Part shown: positions 40,966 through 62,968 of the stretch, in pieces | How positions within the stretch are numbered: the stretch's first letter is position 1 | Layout: each line of letters opens with the position of its first letter | Assembly (NCBI GenBank): GCA_964548415.1 | Contig: CAZJQG010000004.1 | Span: 4,259 to 68,258, forward strand | Direction of reading: 5' to 3' | Length of the DNA stretch: 64,000 nucleotides | DNA from: an uncultured Dehalococcoidales bacterium | GTDB taxonomy: Bacteria > Chloroflexota > Dehalococcoidia > GIF9 > UBA5629 | Notes under the pieces: model-generated | The model's database searches: none | Seen by the model: the letters and a program-made list of their open reading frames with translations, nothing else | What the model was told of the DNA's origin: nothing | Program-made: the position numbers and the translations under genes

Positions 40966-41056
40966 GCAAAAACCGACCTATTTTTGGGTCGGTTTCACTA
41001 CTGGCTCGGCACCGCTCAAGTGACCAAATTACAAACGGTGCTTCATTGCCTCCCAA
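40966..41056 (-). promoter_or_regulatory. Class-II c-di-GMP riboswitch (aptamer plus intrinsic-terminator expression platform), copy 1
   Basis: The minus strand reads GGGAGGCAAUGAAGCACCGUUUGUAAUUUGGUCACUUGAGCGGUGCCGAGCCAGUAGUGAAACCGACCC-AAAAAUA-GGGUCGGUUUUUG. It contains the conserved c-di-GMP-II blocks (CAAUGA, AAUUUGGNCACUUGA, AGUAGUGNAACCGACC). Its helices covary with copy 2. Confidence 0.8.
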
Positions 41057-41091
41057 TTCATGAAATAATGACTATTTATTTAGCTGACTAA

Positions 41092-46843: not shown

Positions 46844-46936
46844 TAAAAAAACCGACCGTTAAAATGGGTCGGTTTCACTACTGGCTCAGCACAAGTCAAG
46901 TGACCAAATTATTACTCGTGCTTCATCGCCCCCCAA
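46844..46936 (-). promoter_or_regulatory. Class-II c-di-GMP riboswitch (aptamer plus terminator), copy 2, upstream of the giant adhesin
   Basis: The minus strand reads GGGGGGCGAUGAAGCACGAGUAAUAAUUUGGUCACUUGACUUGUGCUGAGCCAGUAGUGAAACCGACCC-AUUUUAAC-GGUCGGUUUUUUU. AGGAGG and the ATG at 46795 follow ~35-50 nt later. Confidence 0.8.
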
Positions 46937-47048
46937 CAAGTTCTTAAGTACGTAAATTATTTCGAGTTGGTTACCTCCATGGCAGCCTTCGACTTGATTT
47001 GAAGTTACTTAAACAACACGCAAATCTGCCAAATTTACGATAATTTAC

Positions 47049-52260: not shown

Positions 52261-53292
52261 TCAAATCTGGTGGATTTCTTTCACCATTCGTACGAAGTTA
52301 TCAAAGCTTATGTGCCTCGATCTTGCCGGCTGTCTACCGAGGGGGTCGGAAATTTGCTTCTCACCCCTGAGCGTGTCCAAAGTGGCCGCTATCGATAGCG
52401 ACAGCGCTTCAAGATTGTAGCCGCCCTCGAGGACGAAGACCATCTTCCCCTGGCACAGCATATCGGCCAGAGTTATAATAATTTCGACCAGGCGGGCAAA
52501 GCCTGATACACTGAGCTGCATCGATGCCAGCCTGTCAGCCCAGTGGGCGTCGTAACCTGCTGAAACCATAATTATCTGGGGCTCAAACCGCTTCGCTATC
52601 GGCGCTAAAATGTCTTCGAAAACTTTCTGGTACTCGTCATCGCCCCAGCCTGCAAGGAGTGGAATGTTGACGGTAAAACCCTCTCCGCCTCCGGCTCCCG
52701 TCTCATCTATGCTGCCCGTTCCCGGGTAAAACGGATATTCATGAGTGGAGAAATAAAGTACGTTCGGGTCGGCGTAGAATGTATCCTGTGTACCATTGCC
52801 GTGATGGACGTCGAAATCCACTATTAGTATACGTTTGATATCGAAATTGGCGAGTGCGTATTTTGCAGCTATGGCTATATTATTGAATAGGCAGAAGCCC
52901 ATTGCTTGCCAGCAAGTTGCGTGGTGTCCGGGAGGCCTGACCAGCGCGAAAGAACTGCTTACCTCCCTGTTCATCACGGCATCAACCGCGGTTATGGTAC
53001 CCCCGGCGGCGAACAAAGCTGCGTTGTACGAACCTGGCGAGGTCACTGTGTCGTGATCCAGCCAGCCTCCGCCCCTCTCCGATTGACTTCTAATTCGTGA
53101 AATATATTCAGGCGCATGAACCGCCGTCAGTTCAGCGACGGTAGCCGCACGCGGATGCAATAAATTGAGTTTATCTATTGAGTGGGTGTCCTCGAGGTGG
53201 GATAGGGTGGCTGTCAGCCGCTGACCGTTTTCAACGTGAGTCCCGGTATCGTGTTCTAGATAAACAGGGTCAGAAATCAGGCCGACTCTCAT
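52261..53292 (-). CDS. Histone deacetylase-family (AcuC/HDAC class) deacetylase
   Basis: The motifs RPPGHHA, DFDVHHGNGTQ and EGGYN are present. The start was moved to the internal Met (MRVGLISDPVYLEHDTG) because the upstream extension overlaps the DegV promoter region. Confidence 0.85.
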   Translation of the reverse strand: MRVGLISDPVYLEHDTGTHVENGQRLTATLSHLEDTHSIDKLNLLHPRAATVAELTAVHAPEYISRIRSQSERGGGWLDHDTVTSPGSYNAALFAAGGTITAVDAVMNREVSSSFALVRPPGHHATCWQAMGFCLFNNIAIAAKYALANFDIKRILIVDFDVHHGNGTQDTFYADPNVLYFSTHEYPFYPGTGSIDETGAGGGEGFTVNIPLLAGWGDDEYQKVFEDILAPIAKRFEPQIIMVSAGYDAHWADRLASMQLSVSGFARLVEIIITLADMLCQGKMVFVLEGGYNLEALSLSIAATLDTLRGEKQISDPLGRQPARSRHISFDNFVRMVKEIHQI

Positions 53293-53481
53293 ACGTACTT
53301 TGCTCTTTGGGAAAATGTGGCAGGCAATTTGTTTAAAGAGCATGCCTATGATAGCAAAGCTGGACGTAATGGGCAACAAATGCCTTGTATCCAACGTTGA
53401 AATAACATAGAATATGAAGTCGCCTCGCATATCTAGGCATATCACGCTTGATAAGTCACTCGGAATATACAGGAGGACTAA

Positions 53482-54315
53482 ATGATTAGACTCGTTACCG
53501 ACAGCGCGTCCGATATACCACCCGAGTTTGAAAAAGAGCTGGATGTAACCGTAGTGCCGCTTCAAATACAGTTTGGTAACGAAACTTATAAAGACAGGGT
53601 CGACCTGAGTGCCGAGGAGTTCTACGACAAGCTGCAACACAGTTCCATTCTGCCATCCACTGCAGCTCCCGGTCCGGGTATATTCGCCGAAGTGTTTGAC
53701 GAACTGGCATCAAAGACCAACGAAATTCTGGGTGTATTTGTTTCTCGAAAGTTAAGCGCCACGTATGATGCTGCGCTGCAGGGAATAAAGCTGATGAAAA
53801 GGAAATGCCGGGTGGAAATTGCCGATTCAATGTCTGGCATACTGGGAGAAGGAATACTGGTTATCGAAGCGGCTAACAGAGCGAAAACCAGTGTCAGCCT
53901 GGATGAACTGATTAGTTTTATATCGGAAACCATCCCCAAGATACACGTTAGAGTAACCCTTGACACCCTGGAATACTTGGCCAGAGGCGGCAGGATTGGT
54001 AAGGTGCAGGCTTTCCTCGGCTCTATGCTCAAAATGAATCCGATATTGGGTCTTAAAGACGGTGTGGCTTTTCCTGCTGCCAGAGAGAGGTCCCGGGCTA
54101 AGGCGACCGAATGGCTGATTGACTTTGTATCCCATTTCAGTAAAGTAAAGGCTATGGGTGTGGAGTACGGGACTAATCTTATCGAGGCAAAGGCATTCGC
54201 GGCGCGTCTAACTTCGATTTTTCCGCAGGCTACCATGTATATGTCGAATGTTAGTCCGGTTATCGGGACGCATACCGGGCCTAATTTGTTAGGTTTAACT
54301 GTTCTGGAAGGCTAG
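53482..54315 (+). CDS. DegV-family fatty-acid-binding protein
   Basis: IRLVTDSASDIPPE...VVPLQIQFGNETYKD...SSILPSTAAPGPG...LSATYDAA. Confidence 0.85.
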   Translation: MIRLVTDSASDIPPEFEKELDVTVVPLQIQFGNETYKDRVDLSAEEFYDKLQHSSILPSTAAPGPGIFAEVFDELASKTNEILGVFVSRKLSATYDAALQGIKLMKRKCRVEIADSMSGILGEGILVIEAANRAKTSVSLDELISFISETIPKIHVRVTLDTLEYLARGGRIGKVQAFLGSMLKMNPILGLKDGVAFPAARERSRAKATEWLIDFVSHFSKVKAMGVEYGTNLIEAKAFAARLTSIFPQATMYMSNVSPVIGTHTGPNLLGLTVLEG

Positions 54316-54486
54316 TACAAGCAGGGACTACAGGAAGTACCCTTCTAACGGACTTCCAGACCTATACTGTAAAGCACTACTTCTCTTACCCACGTGTTAT
54401 GCCACTCGTCGCCGCGATTTTCTGTATAAGCACCTAACGGGGCCGATATTTTTTATAGCAGGCTTCGGCGACAATATTAGAAATCG

Positions 54487-54515
54487 TTGTTTGGGTTATG
54501 ACCTCGTGATATACT
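54487..54515 (+). promoter_or_regulatory. Candidate promoter TTGTTT-17-TATACT for the NurA / HAS-barrel / HerA operon
   Basis: The hexamers lie at 54487-54492 and 54510-54515 with a 17-nt spacer, ~18 nt upstream of the ATG at 54533. Confidence 0.4.
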
Positions 54516-54532
54516 GGGGCGTCGGGATAATC

Positions 54533-55735
54533 ATGTCTCTGGATCTATCAAAAATAATCGGACAGATTGTGAACCTGGCTGCTAACTTGAAGCAGAAGGA
54601 GGCACAGAGGCGGTCAAAAATAAGGCATGCCGTGGATGCTCTGGCGTCGGCTGCTGCCGATATAAATGCCTTGAAACAAAAAGTAGAATCGAGCAAAACG
54701 ACCTGGCTGGTGGCGGGGCCAAAAGAGAGCATCGACCTCCGGCAGCCCGCAAAAGAATGTTCCACCGATTACATAGCTGTGGCAAGCGATGGTTCTCACA
54801 TAGACGTGGACCGTCATCAATCGGCCCATTGTTTTCTTATTAACATCGGCATAGCCGAGTTACAGTATGGATTCAATCCAGGCGCTGAACTGCTCAGCGT
54901 ACCGAAGCTATACTTTAGAGACGATGAAGTGGTTATTATGTCCGCGGACGGACGCATAGTCCCGATTGAGGGACAGCTCCTTGGTATAAAGCGCAGTATC
55001 GAGGAATGCCGTATGCTAGTCGATAGGTTGGAAAGGCCGGAATCGTCGCTGCCTATAATTATGTTGCTCGATGGTTCCCTTATATTATGGAGCTTGGCCG
55101 AGCAAATTTACCCTGATTTTGTAGTTAATGAGTTGTTGGTTAATGGATTTTTAAAACACCTGGACAAAATTAGACGGTTCGGTCCAAGACCCCTCTTGGC
55201 CCTGGCAAGTTATATTAGTTTTCCGCGCAGCACGGAGGTGATTAATCTGCTGAGGCTGGCCACCTGTCCGCATCAACAAGTGGACTGTGACCAGTACTGT
55301 TCGGGGAAATTTTCTACGAGGGAATGTGACAGAGTAGGCGGCATACTGGACCGTGAACTTTTTACTTACCTGTTAGCTCCGGGAGAAAGGTCGGCAGTGT
55401 TTACCAGCCGCTCTTCTGTTGTTACCAGGCACTATGAAGCCAACGAAATTAACTTTTTCTACGTCAGGCTGGATAGGGAAGTGGCCCGAATTGAAATTCC
55501 ATTATGGGTAGCTGAAAACGAAAAGCTGCTTGAGCTAACACATTCCGCCATTCTTGACCAGTGCCGAAGAGGATTGGGATACCCGGTTGCTCTGAGCGAA
55601 GCTCACGAGCAAGCAGTGGTAAATGTCGGAGACCGGCAGCAGTTCTGGAATCTGGTCGGGCAAGTACTGGGCGAAGATGGGATTTCAATGTCAAGCTCGG
55701 CCAAGAGTGAAAGCAAGAGAGCCAGATGGATATAG
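54533..55735 (+). CDS. nurA: NurA-domain nuclease
   Basis: The NurA blocks are IAVASDGSHIDVD, IIMLLDGSLILWS, SYISFPRSTEV and the C-terminal GLGYPVALSEAHEQAVV. The start was placed at the Met after the predicted promoter. Confidence 0.75.
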   Translation: MSLDLSKIIGQIVNLAANLKQKEAQRRSKIRHAVDALASAAADINALKQKVESSKTTWLVAGPKESIDLRQPAKECSTDYIAVASDGSHIDVDRHQSAHCFLINIGIAELQYGFNPGAELLSVPKLYFRDDEVVIMSADGRIVPIEGQLLGIKRSIEECRMLVDRLERPESSLPIIMLLDGSLILWSLAEQIYPDFVVNELLVNGFLKHLDKIRRFGPRPLLALASYISFPRSTEVINLLRLATCPHQQVDCDQYCSGKFSTRECDRVGGILDRELFTYLLAPGERSAVFTSRSSVVTRHYEANEINFFYVRLDREVARIEIPLWVAENEKLLELTHSAILDQCRRGLGYPVALSEAHEQAVVNVGDRQQFWNLVGQVLGEDGISMSSSAKSESKRARWI

Positions 55736-56358
55736 AACAAGCTAAAAGCCAAAAACCAAAAACCAAAAACCATTCGGAAAGGCGAATAGGAGAGGTTATT
55801 AAGGCAAGTAGTGCAGAGTTCGCCGCTCAATGTTATAAGCTTGATGAGGCACCGCCTCTAGGATGTCTGGTTAAAACTGAGGGTAAGCCGGGTGAAATTT
55901 ACGGCGTTGTCTACGACGTGGAAACTCAAAGCCTGGAACCGGGTCGTCGTGTAGTGGCCAGGGGGGAGAAATTGGATTCAAAGGACGAGGTTTTTGCGGC
56001 CAATCCGCAACTGTCGCGGCTTCTATCAACCGATTTTAAGGTGATGGTGGTCGGGGAGGTTGAAGGGAAAAGTCGACACTACTATCTGCCGCCAACACCC
56101 GCCGCGATTCACAGTTTTGTCTATGTCTGTCAACCCGAAGAGGTCAGGGGTTTTACCGAGTCCTTGGATTTCCTCAGCCTGCTGATAAACGCTAAAATTT
56201 TGGTTCCGGTGGATGAAGTCATTGCCTCCTGCCTGCGGAATGCCAGCCTAACCCATCCCGACTCGAATGCATTTTTAGTTAAGGCCGGCAAAGAACTGGC
56301 ACGCATGTTGAGTAACGATATTAATAGATTAAATTCTGTGTTGAAAAGGCTAAGGTAA
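55726..56358 (+). CDS. Stand-alone HAS-barrel-like protein (HerA N-terminal-domain paralogue without ATPase) with a helical C-terminal extension
   Basis: RIGEVIKASSAEFAAQCYKLDEAPPLGCLVKTEG..GEIYGVVYDVE...FKVMVVGEVEG...YLPPTPAAIHSFVYVCQPEEV parallels the HerA N-terminus of the next gene (LGAVVSGSLTQGVEVRL...VGRYVAIEG..HRFFGMITDVS...LPMLTIGG...PAKTVPAHFSTVKLASQRDV). It overlaps both neighbours. Confidence 0.55.
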   Translation: MDIEQAKSQKPKTKNHSERRIGEVIKASSAEFAAQCYKLDEAPPLGCLVKTEGKPGEIYGVVYDVETQSLEPGRRVVARGEKLDSKDEVFAANPQLSRLLSTDFKVMVVGEVEGKSRHYYLPPTPAAIHSFVYVCQPEEVRGFTESLDFLSLLINAKILVPVDEVIASCLRNASLTHPDSNAFLVKAGKELARMLSNDINRLNSVLKRLR

Positions 56359-57983
56359 TGGCAACTGAAGAAGAACAGAAACGTTTAGGGGCTGTGGTTT
56401 CCGGCTCGCTTACTCAGGGCGTCGAAGTCAGGCTAGACGCCTCTATTTCGGTTGAAGACATGGCTGTGGGCAGGTACGTGGCGATTGAGGGCACCAAGCA
56501 CCGTTTCTTTGGAATGATTACCGATGTCAGCCTGGAAACCGTAGACCCTAATGTGGCAGTAACGCCTCCTGATGTATCTGACCCCTTTATTGCCCAGGTG
56601 ATAAACGGTACCACTACATATGGAAAACTCGAGGTGTTGCCCATGCTGACCATTGGCGGCGATGCTGCCAGTATTCTAGAAGGCCCTCAACCGGCGAAGA
56701 CAGTGCCAGCCCATTTCTCTACTGTGAAGCTGGCTTCTCAACGTGATGTTGAGGTAGTTTTCGGCGCCGAGGATGAAAAGCGATTTTACGTTGGAACACC
56801 GCTTGATATGGAGACCAAGGTGTGTCTGGATGTGGCTGAATTTGTTAAGCGCTCGAATGGTGTTTTCGGCAAAAGCGGTACGGGCAAAACATTTCTCACG
56901 CGCTTACTTCTCGTCGGCATGCTACAAAAGAATGCAGCGGTTAGTCTCGTATTCGACATGCACAGCGAGTACGGATGGGAAGGTAAAACCGAAAAAGGCT
57001 ATAAAGTTAAGGGTTTGAAGCAGCTATTTCCATCTAAAGTTGCCATTTTTACTCTGGATGAGGAAAGTTCCAAACGCAGAAGAGTAAACACCGATGTTGT
57101 GGTTAGAATCGGCTACAATGAAATCGAACCCGAAGATGTCGAGCTTCTACGTCAAACCCTCAACCTTACCGAGGCGTCCACTCAAACGATATATCAGCTA
57201 GCGAGAGAGTTCGGGGACAGTAAATGGCTGGAGACCGTGCTGAACCTGAATGAGGAGGACGGTAAACAATTAATATCGAGGCTGAATATTCATGACAGCA
57301 CCTACCGCAACTTGCGGCGCGGTCTCGAAAACCTGCGGCGTTTTTCATTTTTGGTGCCCCATACCCGCGAAAATTCGGTGCAGCGCATACTAGATTACCT
57401 GGATAGGGGCATAAATGTAATACTTGAGTTCGGCAGGTTCGATGATTTCGCTGCTTACATCCTGGTAGCCAATCTACTGAGCCGGCGAATATACGCCAGA
57501 TATCGGGAGAATGCGGAAAGGGAGATGGGAGGCGAGGTAGCCCCGTCCCGTCCCTTGGTCATAACCATTGAAGAGGCGCACCGTTTTCTGAATCCAGAGC
57601 TTTCGTCTCACACCATATTCGGTAGAATAGCCCGCGAAATGAGGAAATACAACGTAACCCTACTGGTAATCGACCAGCGGCCCAGTGGAATAGACGCCGA
57701 AGTCATGTCTCAGCTGGGGACTAAGATAACCTGTCTTCTTGATGATGAACGGGACCTGGACAGCGTGCTTACAGGAACTTCAGGTAAAAGCGAATTAAAA
57801 TCAGTTCTGTCAAAATTAGAGACGAAACAGCAAGCCCTTATATTCGGCCACGCCGTGCCTATGCCGGTGGTGATTAAAACCCGGGAGTACGGCACCGCCG
57901 AGTCTTATAGGGAGCTCGGTTTTCTGGACGCGGCTGAACTTAAGAAAAAGACGCAAAAAGACATAGAAGATTTGTGGGCTTGA
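56358..57983 (+). CDS. herA: HerA-like (DUF87, FtsK-HerA superfamily) hexameric ATPase/helicase
   Basis: An N-terminal HAS barrel is followed by Walker A FGKSGTGKTFL, the DMHSEYG block, ITIEEAHRFLNP and LLVIDQRPSGID...ITCLLDDERD. Confidence 0.8.
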   Translation: MATEEEQKRLGAVVSGSLTQGVEVRLDASISVEDMAVGRYVAIEGTKHRFFGMITDVSLETVDPNVAVTPPDVSDPFIAQVINGTTTYGKLEVLPMLTIGGDAASILEGPQPAKTVPAHFSTVKLASQRDVEVVFGAEDEKRFYVGTPLDMETKVCLDVAEFVKRSNGVFGKSGTGKTFLTRLLLVGMLQKNAAVSLVFDMHSEYGWEGKTEKGYKVKGLKQLFPSKVAIFTLDEESSKRRRVNTDVVVRIGYNEIEPEDVELLRQTLNLTEASTQTIYQLAREFGDSKWLETVLNLNEEDGKQLISRLNIHDSTYRNLRRGLENLRRFSFLVPHTRENSVQRILDYLDRGINVILEFGRFDDFAAYILVANLLSRRIYARYRENAEREMGGEVAPSRPLVITIEEAHRFLNPELSSHTIFGRIAREMRKYNVTLLVIDQRPSGIDAEVMSQLGTKITCLLDDERDLDSVLTGTSGKSELKSVLSKLETKQQALIFGHAVPMPVVIKTREYGTAESYRELGFLDAAELKKKTQKDIEDLWA

Positions 57984-60755: not shown

Positions 60756-61867
60756 ATAGAATTTTCTTTAGACTGGCTTGGTGTCTGACCGGTCACGTAT
60801 TGCTGCCATAGTGCATCGAGTCCATCCTGGTCGAAACCATAGACATGAAGGAGTGCGTCATCATACGTATTCCCAACTTTGAATAAATTCAGAAGCTCTA
60901 GCACTTTGTCTCCACCGTAGTTTTGAATAAGGAAAGTAACGATGCTTTGGCTTTCAGCATATGACAGATAAGCCTCTGCCGGTATGGCCGAAAACGGGCT
61001 GGCTAAGCTGCGCACAGATATAAGGTTGTGTTGGGCTATTCCCTTTACCAGCACCGATTCCAGATAAGAATCAGGTTCACCCTGGGCATACATGGCTAAG
61101 CCTTCATCCAACCAGAAAGGTAGGACGGCACCATAGGGGCTGAAAGTTATTTGATGAGTTACCATATGGCCGAGCTCATGTGCCAGCGCACTTTTACCCC
61201 AGTCCAGATCACTTGTGGGAATACCGATTGCGATTATGCCGTATGCATAGTAAGAGAAGCCGCCCGACCATTCTTGCGGGAAGATCATGGCGCTGTGCAG
61301 GTCATTGGAGCTGGCATATATGTATATGCTCACCGGTTTCTCGAGATGGACACCCGTATCTTGTGCCAGTTTCTGCAACGTGTCCCCACCCGCCGCTAAC
61401 AATTGATCAGCAAAAGATTGGCTACCTTGGTACCAGTAGATATTTAGTTGACCTGAAGTTGCGCTCTTCCACTGGTGGCGAAGATCGTCGAAACTAATTT
61501 TTTGCTTTTGGGTGGTGAGAATGTTGCCGGTGACATCCTCAATTGTCCACCAGTAGGTGACCGCGGCGCCAACCGGCAAGGAAGCTTTTCTCATATCCCA
61601 GACCCATTGTGTTTTCACTTTGGTGGAAGGCGTAAACTCAGGCCAGCCTTCATCCGTTACCTTAGCGTAGTTCATACTGTCAACTTGATAGTGCAGGCGC
61701 AATTTGACAATGTTATTTGGGCTCTCAGCAGTAATGCTGAACGTTAGAGCCGATGGGAAATATATCTGAGCTGAGCTGTCAACCAACGAAATTCCACTCT
61801 CGGCATGAGTAATGGAGGGAACAATAACCATTAGAGCCAGCATAACGGAGAGTAACCACTTACTCAT
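60719..61867 (-). CDS. Secreted MA-clan zinc metallopeptidase-like protein
   Basis: The signal peptide is MSKWLLSVMLALMVIVPSITHA. HELGHMV is followed by a downstream glutamate (WLDEGLAMY). Confidence 0.7.
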   Translation of the reverse strand: MSKWLLSVMLALMVIVPSITHAESGISLVDSSAQIYFPSALTFSITAESPNNIVKLRLHYQVDSMNYAKVTDEGWPEFTPSTKVKTQWVWDMRKASLPVGAAVTYWWTIEDVTGNILTTQKQKISFDDLRHQWKSATSGQLNIYWYQGSQSFADQLLAAGGDTLQKLAQDTGVHLEKPVSIYIYASSNDLHSAMIFPQEWSGGFSYYAYGIIAIGIPTSDLDWGKSALAHELGHMVTHQITFSPYGAVLPFWLDEGLAMYAQGEPDSYLESVLVKGIAQHNLISVRSLASPFSAIPAEAYLSYAESQSIVTFLIQNYGGDKVLELLNLFKVGNTYDDALLHVYGFDQDGLDALWQQYVTGQTPSQSKENSMWAQICVLQEVY

Positions 61868-62968
61868 TTTCCTACCCCCAGTCTGTAGCGCAGATATGCG
61901 GCGATAAAATCGTCGATTTCCCCATTGAGCACGGCGCCAGCGTTACTCGTCTCATATTTGGTTCGATGGTCTTTCACCATTTGATAGGGATGCAATACGT
62001 AACTTCTTATTTGGTTACCCCAGCCGGCTTCAATCCGCTCGCCTTTCAATTTGGACTTTTCCATCTCCTGTTCTTCAACCTTCTGTTCCAGAAGTCTTGC
62101 ATAAAGCACTTTCAGGGCACTTTCCTTATTTTGCCGCTGTGAACGTTGACTCTGACAGCTGACCACCATGCCAGTTGGCAGATGTGTAATTCTAACAGCA
62201 CTGCTGGTTTTTTGCATATGCTGCCCACCGGGCCCACTCGATCTGAACGTGTCTATTTTCAGGTCTTCCGGTTTTACTTTGATATCAATCTCCCCCTCGG
62301 CTTCAGGAAGTATCTCGACGAGAACGAAAGAAGTGTGGCGGGCATGGTCGGCGTCGAAGGGAGACAGACGGACAAGACGATGGACCCCATGTTCCGATTT
62401 TAAGTAGCCGTAGGCGTAGTCCCCCTTTATTTCTAACGTGGCACTCTTCAGACCGGCTTCTTCGCCGGGTGAGGTGTCCAATATTTCCGTTTTATGGTTA
62501 TGCCGCTCAGCCCAGCGCAAATACATCCGGAACAGCATCTCAGCCCAATCCTGCGATTCGGTACCTCCAGCGCCGGCATGTATGGTCATGATGGCGTCTC
62601 GAGTGTCGTATTCTTCACTCAGCAGCAGTCTGGTCTCAAGCTCATCGAGTTCAGATGTCATCTCCTCAGCGCGTGTCTGTATGTCTTCCTTGAAAGACTC
62701 ATCATTTTCGTTTATAGCCAGCGAAACTATATCAAGCAGGTCAGCAACTTCCTTTTCCAGCTTACGCCAGGTTTCCACTGTGCTTTTAGCGGCTCCAAGC
62801 TGGCGCATTAAAGCCTGCGCTCTGGCAGGCTCCTGCCAAAAATCAGGTTTGATAGTTTTAGCCTCGAGATTGGCAATTTGTTTTTCCCTACTGGGAATGT
62901 CAAAGACGCACCAGAATGTCCGAGATGCGCCGGTTCAGAGCTTCGAGAATATCTTTTTGTTCCTGCAT
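61864..62968 (-). CDS. prfB: Peptide chain release factor 2, requires programmed +1 frameshift at CTT TGA C (62905-62899)
   Basis: ORF0 is ATG(62968) MQEQKDILEALNRRISDILVRL followed by TGA. The +1 frame continues DIPSREKQIANLEAKTIKPDFWQEPARAQALMRQL... into the 314-aa ORF, which carries SPF and GGQ motifs (RSSGPGGQHMQKT). Confidence 0.9.

Follow-up and report, generated by a model that had tools for sequence, protein, structure and literature searches.

We analyzed a 64,000-nucleotide (nt) stretch of DNA (the window; contig CAZJQG010000004.1) from an uncultured Dehalococcoidales bacterium of the Chloroflexota, in which the genes for a NurA-family nuclease and a HerA-family ATPase are separated by a third open reading frame (ORF) encoding 210 amino acids (aa), which we call P210. 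A first-pass annotation, made from the sequence alone, had placed this ORF between nurA and herA with overlaps on both sides and had described its product as a stand-alone HAS (HerA-ATP Synthase) barrel protein. The layout is as described, with a 10-nt overlap at the upstream junction and a TAATG at the downstream one, and the structural assignment also held, as detailed below. P210 is a real and widely conserved gene, and we think it probable that its product is a hitherto undescribed third part of a bacterial machine for DNA-break repair.

The nurA/P210 junction reads gccagATGGATATAGaac / gccagATGGATATAG; here, the P210 ATG lies at 55726, 10 nt inside nurA, and the nurA stop codon ends at 55735. 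At the P210/herA junction (aggTAATGgca), the P210 stop codon (56356-56358) and the herA ATG (56358-56360) have one A in common. The list of ORFs allows two starts for nurA, a TTG at 54491 that opens the longest ORF and a start at 54533 that yields a protein of 400 aa. We favor the latter, because alignments with homologues begin at the first residue of the 400-aa NurA. Scanning the locus for promoters and terminators gave counts at or below shuffled expectation, and no promoter upstream of nurA rose above the shuffled background.

Pfam recognizes a single domain in P210, the HAS-barrel (PF09378), which spans residues 21-113 and profile positions 1-89 of 90 (E 4.3e-5). The score, 24.0 bits, is slightly below the Pfam gathering cut-off of 25.2 bits; PF09378 is already present in the precomputed annotation of many close P210 homologues. 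Neither NCBIfam nor PADLOC contains a family that matches P210. An AlphaFold2 model computed from an alignment containing 22 homologues (predicted local distance difference test score [pLDDT] 73.9, predicted template modeling score [pTM] 0.71) comprises a beta-rich domain at residues 20-134 followed by five helices at residues 137-209. When this model was compared with the Protein Data Bank (PDB) using Foldseek, each of the top 50 matches was a HerA chain (E 4.1e-6 to 1.2e-3, with 126-146 aligned columns). These chains derive from Sulfolobus, Thermococcus, TdpA, Sir2-HerA, DUF4297-HerA, and Deinococcus, with Sulfolobus HerA scoring best. As modeled, the P210 barrel is superposable on the HerA N-domain and constitutes a stand-alone HAS barrel. 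Searches of the PDB with the P210 sequence or family profile returned chance matches only (bL19m, E 1.3; a flavin mononucleotide-binding protein, E 0.0044 over 37 residues), and no unrelated family lays claim to the protein.

The relationship of P210 to HerA appears to be confined to this barrel. A Walker A motif or P-loop is not present, there is no RecA-like strand order past the barrel, and Pfam reports no DUF87 or AAA match; given these absences, and with helices alone following residue 137, we conclude that P210 is not a HerA and that the two have only the barrel in common. The first-pass annotation had likewise noted the missing P-loop and a helical tail, which in the model runs from about residue 137 to 209. 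It had further listed motif pairs thought to be shared by P210 and HerA, and these (RIGEVI/RLGAVV, PLGCLV/AVGRYV, and EIYGVVYDV/RFFGMITDV) are columns that hhalign pairs in its alignment of the P210 family with the cognate HerA family. This alignment is colinear with the HerA N-terminus but weak, its score falling short of significance (E 0.032, probability 1.6%), and for that reason we regard P210 as an old, diverged HAS barrel and not as a recent duplicate of its neighbor. The alignment also sets FTES---LDFLSLL of P210 opposite the HerA Walker A segment FGKSGTGKTFLTRLL, a correspondence that, because the alignment is not significant, we did not use as evidence.

The C-terminal domain appears to be a well-defined unit. 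Modeled alone (residues 129-210), it reaches a pLDDT of 92.7, and Foldseek detects no analogue of it in the PDB (best E 2.9). Two motifs within it, DE(V/L)xAAxLR and FLxxAG(K/R)xL, are conserved family-wide, and mean pairwise identity is 0.52 for this domain, 0.54 for the P210 barrel, and 0.54 for the NurA nuclease domain. As candidate functional sites we rejected a PGRRxxARG loop and Cys36/Cys135, which are invariant in Dehalococcoidia only and are not conserved in the Tectimicrobiota or Sericytochromatia members of the family.

Table 1. Features of the nurA-P210-herA locus (window coordinates)
Feature	Positions	Strand	Basis
Intergenic stretch between degV and nurA, presumed operon control region	54316..54532	+	Sequence read
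nurA, 400-aa NurA-family nuclease with helical ~83-aa N-terminal extension	54533..55735	+	Pfam NurA
Overlap of nurA end and P210 start, 10 nt, ATGGATATAG	55726..55735	+	Sequence read
P210, stand-alone HAS-barrel protein, 210 aa	55726..56358	+	Pfam, AlphaFold2, Foldseek, family searches
P210 residues 20-135, predicted HAS-type beta-barrel	55783..56130	+	Pfam, AlphaFold2 strands, Foldseek
P210 residues 136-210, predicted five-helix C-terminal domain	56131..56355	+	AlphaFold2 model; no PDB analogue
P210/herA TAATG stop/start junction	56356..56360	+	Sequence read
herA, 541-aa HerA-family (DUF87) ATPase with own N-terminal HAS barrel	56358..57983	+	Pfam
herA Walker A GKSGTGKT, residues 171-178	56868..56891	+	Orthologue alignment
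herA Walker B acidic pair E405-E406 (ITIEEAH)	57570..57575	+	Orthologue alignment

Domain and motif tests assign the products of the two flanking genes to the NurA and HerA families. Residues 84-363 of NurA match the Pfam NurA domain (E 3.5e-25), and all 54 aligned orthologues share D86 (DGS), D180 (DGSL), and H358 (numbering follows the 400-aa protein and equals the alignment number minus 14). HerA matches DUF87 (E 3.1e-31) and, at residues 11-63, HAS-barrel (E 7.3e-8). Six of the eight positions of its Walker A motif are identical in all 64 orthologues, with S173 found in 59/64 and T178 in 63/64, and the Walker B pair is invariant (64/64). With their catalytic motifs intact, both proteins look active. 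Among the twelve closest GTDB loci, identity is 85%-94% for HerA, 63%-72% for NurA, and 64%-73% for P210. The closest solved relatives of the window HerA are the HerA chains 8wiv and 4d2i; its N-terminal 181 residues find no match in the PDB by sequence.

We made three further observations on herA. Its own HAS-barrel match is partial, covering profile positions 2-50 of 90, as compared with positions 1-89 for P210. A similarly short match is seen among P210-linked HerA proteins, in which only the first 47-59 of the 90 HAS-barrel positions are aligned (window 56358-56777, residues 1-140; loci L077 and L079). Finally, a 79-aa ORF antisense to herA (56414-56653, minus strand) clusters with ORFs in all 80 loci of the GTDB set described below; we rejected it as a gene and consider it a mere shadow of herA, whose coding sequence is very strongly conserved.

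P210 belongs to a large family. One database search recovered 491 relatives, mostly labeled Dehalococcoidia or unlabeled and all annotated as hypothetical, and a second search, made with a diverse profile, yielded further Dehalococcoidia sequences only. When 1.84 billion representatives were searched exhaustively with a profile, 965 clusters (50% identity) were recovered at E<=1e-3, 633 of them at E<=1e-10, and nearly all comprise proteins of ~190-215 aa. Members are present in Dehalococcoidia, Tectimicrobiota, Thermodesulfobacteriota, and many uncultured lineages, and a distant branch occurs in non-photosynthetic Cyanobacteriota (Sericytochromatia and Obscuribacterales). By tblastn, a P210 copy was found on none of 72,556 plasmids and in none of 50,697 phage genomes, and the viral structures of BFVD likewise gave no match. 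The representative library additionally contains a single 372-aa protein, P0210, in which a C-terminal portion of a NurA domain (Pfam E 1.4e-13) and a complete P210-like sequence (HAS-barrel, 27.1 bits) share one chain; it may be a genuine fusion or may have arisen from a frameshift or misassembly.

We surveyed the gene neighborhoods of P210 in two sets of loci. The first (the GTDB set) consists of 80 loci from species genomes, mostly Dehalococcoidia with two Tectimicrobiota and one Thermodesulfobacteriota, and the second (the metagenome set) of 80 loci from a divergent subgroup, about 46%-91% identical to a Tectimicrobiota-type member. The first-pass annotation had proposed such a survey to establish whether the trio recurs; it does so across several phyla, and we saw the arrangement again in about 160 independent loci. 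Chloroflexota, Tectimicrobiota, and Thermodesulfobacteriota all retain the order nurA-P210-herA, at 36%-48% identity. In the closest GTDB loci the flanks are core genes, encoding SecDF, a deacetylase, RadC, and a solute-binding protein, and this synteny extends across 20-30 Dehalococcoidia loci.

How firmly the three genes are joined differs between junctions and lineages. In the GTDB set, herA lies immediately downstream of P210 in 77 of the 78 loci that could be evaluated, and the two genes overlap in 58 (by 4 nt in 51 and by 1 nt in 7). In 60/67 evaluable loci, nurA is found on the same strand no more than 5 kb upstream, and the exact -10 overlap with P210 recurs in 20/67. Loci with a displaced nurA have unrelated genes in between, including those for glutamine cyclotransferase, an M20 peptidase, GNAT acetyltransferases, and an SMR transporter. 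The metagenome set shows herA adjacent in 57/66 loci, nurA adjacent in 60/66, and the full trio in 46/56. Broken trios occur in both directions: P210 remains with herA in Dehalococcoidia and with nurA in three loci (L140, L143, and L145), in which no herA lies within 4 kb. Because either partner can be the one retained beside it, we regard P210 as tied to both. Its linkage is to both partners, tightest to herA in the GTDB set, and not obligate. The first-pass reading of a protein wedged between nurA and herA and coupled to both is supported, with two refinements: in the Dehalococcoidia-dominated set the tight unit is P210-herA, nurA often being displaced, and the family is not always linked to herA.

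Several relatives place the trio among recombination genes. In Candidatus Entotheonella (L077, 507-8546) the order is radA, recA, an mraZ-like gene, nurA, P210, herA, and a Metallophos (Mre11/SbcD-like) gene. A related metagenome contig (L085, 1-12576) extends beyond this type of cluster with a gene for a second DUF87 ATPase (653 aa), rusA, and, after the phosphoesterase gene, a 1009-aa SMC_N/SbcC-like gene. An Mre11-like gene follows herA in 8 of 34 metagenome loci. The presence of an MraZ-family gene within the Tectimicrobiota-type repair cluster (L077/L085) is unusual.

The Sericytochromatia branch presents different surroundings. In three loci representing two homologues (L081, 5521-6612; L082, 1246-2334; L084, 5534-6600), the P210 gene stands right after a gene for a 2Fe-2S thioredoxin-like ferredoxin (PF01257), with a 3-nt gap or a 4-nt overlap. 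On another Sericytochromatia contig it follows an AF_1845 (PF27226) gene, and in one further locus a 69-aa ORF. The pairing with ferredoxin or AF_1845 hints at a second context for the P210 family.

NurA-HerA is the archaeal-type counterpart of RecBCD/AddAB, and comparison with known systems highlights what is distinctive about this locus. Like D. radiodurans NurA-HerA (PDB 7wrx) and Thermus nurA-hepA, the window genes are chromosomal, with nurA upstream of herA in one operon, and they encode a HerA composed of a HAS barrel and a RecA-like ATPase domain together with a NurA nuclease bearing conserved acidic residues. The Deinococcus (PMC9960219) and Thermus (PMC5448004) operons are, however, described as two genes, whereas here a third, apparently translationally coupled gene for a stand-alone HAS barrel is inserted. 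The window HerA is, moreover, too divergent for phmmer to reach the Deinococcus chain at E<=1e-3. The archaeal herA-mre11-rad50-nurA operon (Sulfolobus and Pyrococcus; PDB 4d2i) has its mirror image in the Tectimicrobiota relatives, which link HerA and NurA to Mre11/Rad50-type genes. Sulfolobus HerA, which P210 matches best in structure, docks NurA through its HAS barrel (PMC3326311). The window differs from the archaeal operon in having no mre11, rad50, recA, or radA gene within its 64 kb (tblastn gave no Mre11, RecA, or RadA match there), and the literature examined on archaeal systems mentions no separate HAS-barrel protein. The P210 barrel also superposes on the HerA N-domains of Sir2-HerA/Nezha, DUF4297-HerA, and TdpAB (PDB 8sub, 8zir, and 8wfd), in which a HerA hexamer is combined with an effector. 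Unlike in these anti-phage systems, the genes considered here are not mobile, their context is one of housekeeping and recombination, and neither P210 nor NurA has a PADLOC match.

By the Pfam definition, the N-terminal barrels of the F1/V1 alpha and beta subunits belong to the same superfamily as the HerA barrel. In ATP synthase, the barrels of catalytic and non-catalytic subunits stand side by side in a ring, which provides a precedent for two polypeptides in one crown. P210 differs from these subunits in that it has no nucleotide-binding domain, and no synthase chain appears among its top 50 Foldseek matches. The HAS barrel was reportedly defined by Iyer et al. in 2004. Full-text literature yielded no description of a stand-alone HAS-barrel partner of NurA-HerA, in a check that did not extend to Iyer et al. 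2004, where an early mention is possible.

We put at about even the chances that P210 is an accessory, non-catalytic third subunit of the chromosomal bacterial NurA-HerA machine that resects DNA ends in double-strand-break repair. Under this model, P210, NurA, and HerA would be produced from one transcript, with translation of P210 coupled to that of both partners via the overlapping stop and start codons. The P210 barrel would take its place at the HAS crown of the HerA hexamer, either atop it or next to it, with the helical domain touching NurA or DNA, and the protein would mediate or gate the coupling of motor and nuclease. Binding of P210 to HerA and NurA, the stoichiometry and geometry of the resulting complex, and the effect on activity are points that we infer; the seat at the crown is suggested by the fact that the HAS barrel of HerA is the docking surface for the NurA dimer. 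In Sulfolobus, HerA deprived of this barrel no longer binds NurA yet still forms hexamers (PMC3326311), and in the cryo-electron microscopy structure of the D. radiodurans complex the NurA dimer sits atop a ring of six HAS barrels (PMC9960219). For a protein made of such a barrel and a conserved helical domain, encoded in step with HerA and usually with NurA, a non-catalytic subunit at the crown or the NurA interface is the simplest reading. We favor a role in chromosomal DNA-break repair over one in phage defense because HerA is highly conserved, the locus is flanked by core genes, NurA and P210 have no match in PADLOC, and the trio sits among recombination genes in relatives.

A more far-reaching form of this proposal, which we entertain tentatively and hold to be the less likely, is that P210 represents a new class of ATPase-less HAS-barrel subunit that co-assembles with the HerA hexamer, either as a second tier of barrels or interleaved in the crown. 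NurA-HerA would then be an obligate three-component machine, in which the five-helix domain might serve as an adaptor, either reconciling the HerA hexamer with the NurA dimer (a 6:2 symmetry mismatch) or recruiting Mre11-Rad50 or RecA. Such co-assembly would echo the mixed crown of catalytic and non-catalytic barrels in F1-ATPase.

A number of our results weigh against P210 being a subunit of the complex. HerA carries a HAS barrel of its own, and the need for a second is unexplained; the direct similarity between P210 and its cognate HerA is, as described above, weak; and no family-wide invariant residue of P210 marks a DNA-binding or interface site. Mirror-tree analysis with partial correlations of pairwise identities between the domains of P210 and those of HerA and NurA gave values that were all positive (partial r 0.09-0.49) and did not discriminate among them. 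In some marine loci (L144, L146, and L151), P210 stands alone among housekeeping genes such as tsaD, and the four Sericytochromatia-subgroup homologues examined never adjoin herA or nurA in the loci retrieved.

These last two observations are what one would expect if the P210 family functions independently of the NurA-HerA complex and came to lie beside these genes by operon hitch-hiking in some lineages. We consider this unlikely: the gene order is conserved across three phyla at 36%-48% identity, stop and start codons overlap at both P210 junctions, and the sole recognizable domain of P210 is otherwise specific to HerA-type ATPases. The genes for one complex are, moreover, commonly dispersed, and herA and nurA may be elsewhere in those Sericytochromatia genomes. 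Alternatively, P210 could act as a decoy or brake, a HAS mimic that by binding the NurA dimer prevents the nuclease from joining HerA, or otherwise holds it inactive, until the mimic is displaced by a DNA end or another signal. The HAS barrel is indeed the NurA-binding element of HerA (PMC3326311; PMC9960219), P210 matches the whole HAS profile, the three loci noted above pair it with nurA without herA, and there is the one NurA-P210 fusion, P0210. In the Dehalococcoidia-dominated GTDB set, P210 is nonetheless coupled most closely and most consistently to herA (77/78 adjacent, 58 overlapping) and not to nurA, unrelated genes often intervene between nurA and P210, and simple mimicry leaves the conserved C-terminal domain unexplained. 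We therefore regard a decoy as rather unlikely.

The first-pass annotation had left room for a defense function, in which the trio would form an anti-phage system of the HerA-plus-nuclease type with P210 as sensor or adaptor. HerA matches several PADLOC HerA models, which are generic (best E 5.1e-35), and sub-threshold matches link it to NCBIfam anti-phage HerA models; Sir2-HerA, DUF4297-HerA, and TdpAB, too, prevail among the solved HerA structures that resemble P210. The best NCBIfam equivalog score, however, is 89 bits against a cut-off of 800, and HerA falls far under every equivalog cut-off. The absence of PADLOC matches for NurA and P210 means that the components are not all matched, homologues are missing from the plasmids, phage genomes, and BFVD structures searched, HerA is 85%-94% identical among the twelve closest GTDB loci, which share a housekeeping synteny, the distribution is neither patchy, mobile, nor island-like, and the neighbors in relatives are recA, radA, rusA, and mre11/rad50-like genes. 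Together, these findings disfavor a defense role, which we now judge very unlikely. Least credible of all is that P210 is a functionless, decaying remnant of a duplicated herA 5' end. The colinear hhalign alignment, with its P210 segment opposite Walker A, can be read as a relic lacking the P-loop, but that alignment is not significant, the gene occurs in several phyla and in 965 clusters of constant length, and its helical C-terminal domain is conserved and confidently folded in the model. Conservation of P210 equal to that of the NurA nuclease domain excludes a relic pseudogene.

Elsewhere in the window we noted features unrelated to this locus. Two cyclic di-GMP-II riboswitch aptamers lie ~5.9 kb apart at 40978-41062 and 46858-46942, both on the minus strand, and both match Rfam RF01786 (74.9 and 65.5 bits; gathering score, 53.5). 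The ORF for release factor 2 (prfB; 61864-62808, minus strand) is without its N-terminus, and a CTTTGAC motif occurs just upstream on the same strand (62899-62905; region 61864-62905), consistent with the programmed +1 frameshift site classically known from prfB. The longest ORF of a histone-deacetylase-family gene (52261-53640, minus strand) would overlap the start of degV (53482-54315, plus strand) by 159 nt; since residue 135 is the first one covered by its Pfam domain, translation probably starts within the ORF, near MRVGLISDP, which would make the overlap an artifact of ORF calling.

If P210 is a true subunit of the complex, the bacterial NurA-HerA machine has an unrecognized architecture in these groups, and reconstitutions performed without P210 may lack a component. 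P210 would then also provide the first functional case of a HAS barrel acting as an independent polypeptide, and would bear on how partners dock onto HerA rings, including those of the HerA-based defense systems now being solved. Neither Pfam nor NCBIfam offers a model dedicated to the P210 family, and defining it as a family would improve annotation in genomes and metagenomes.

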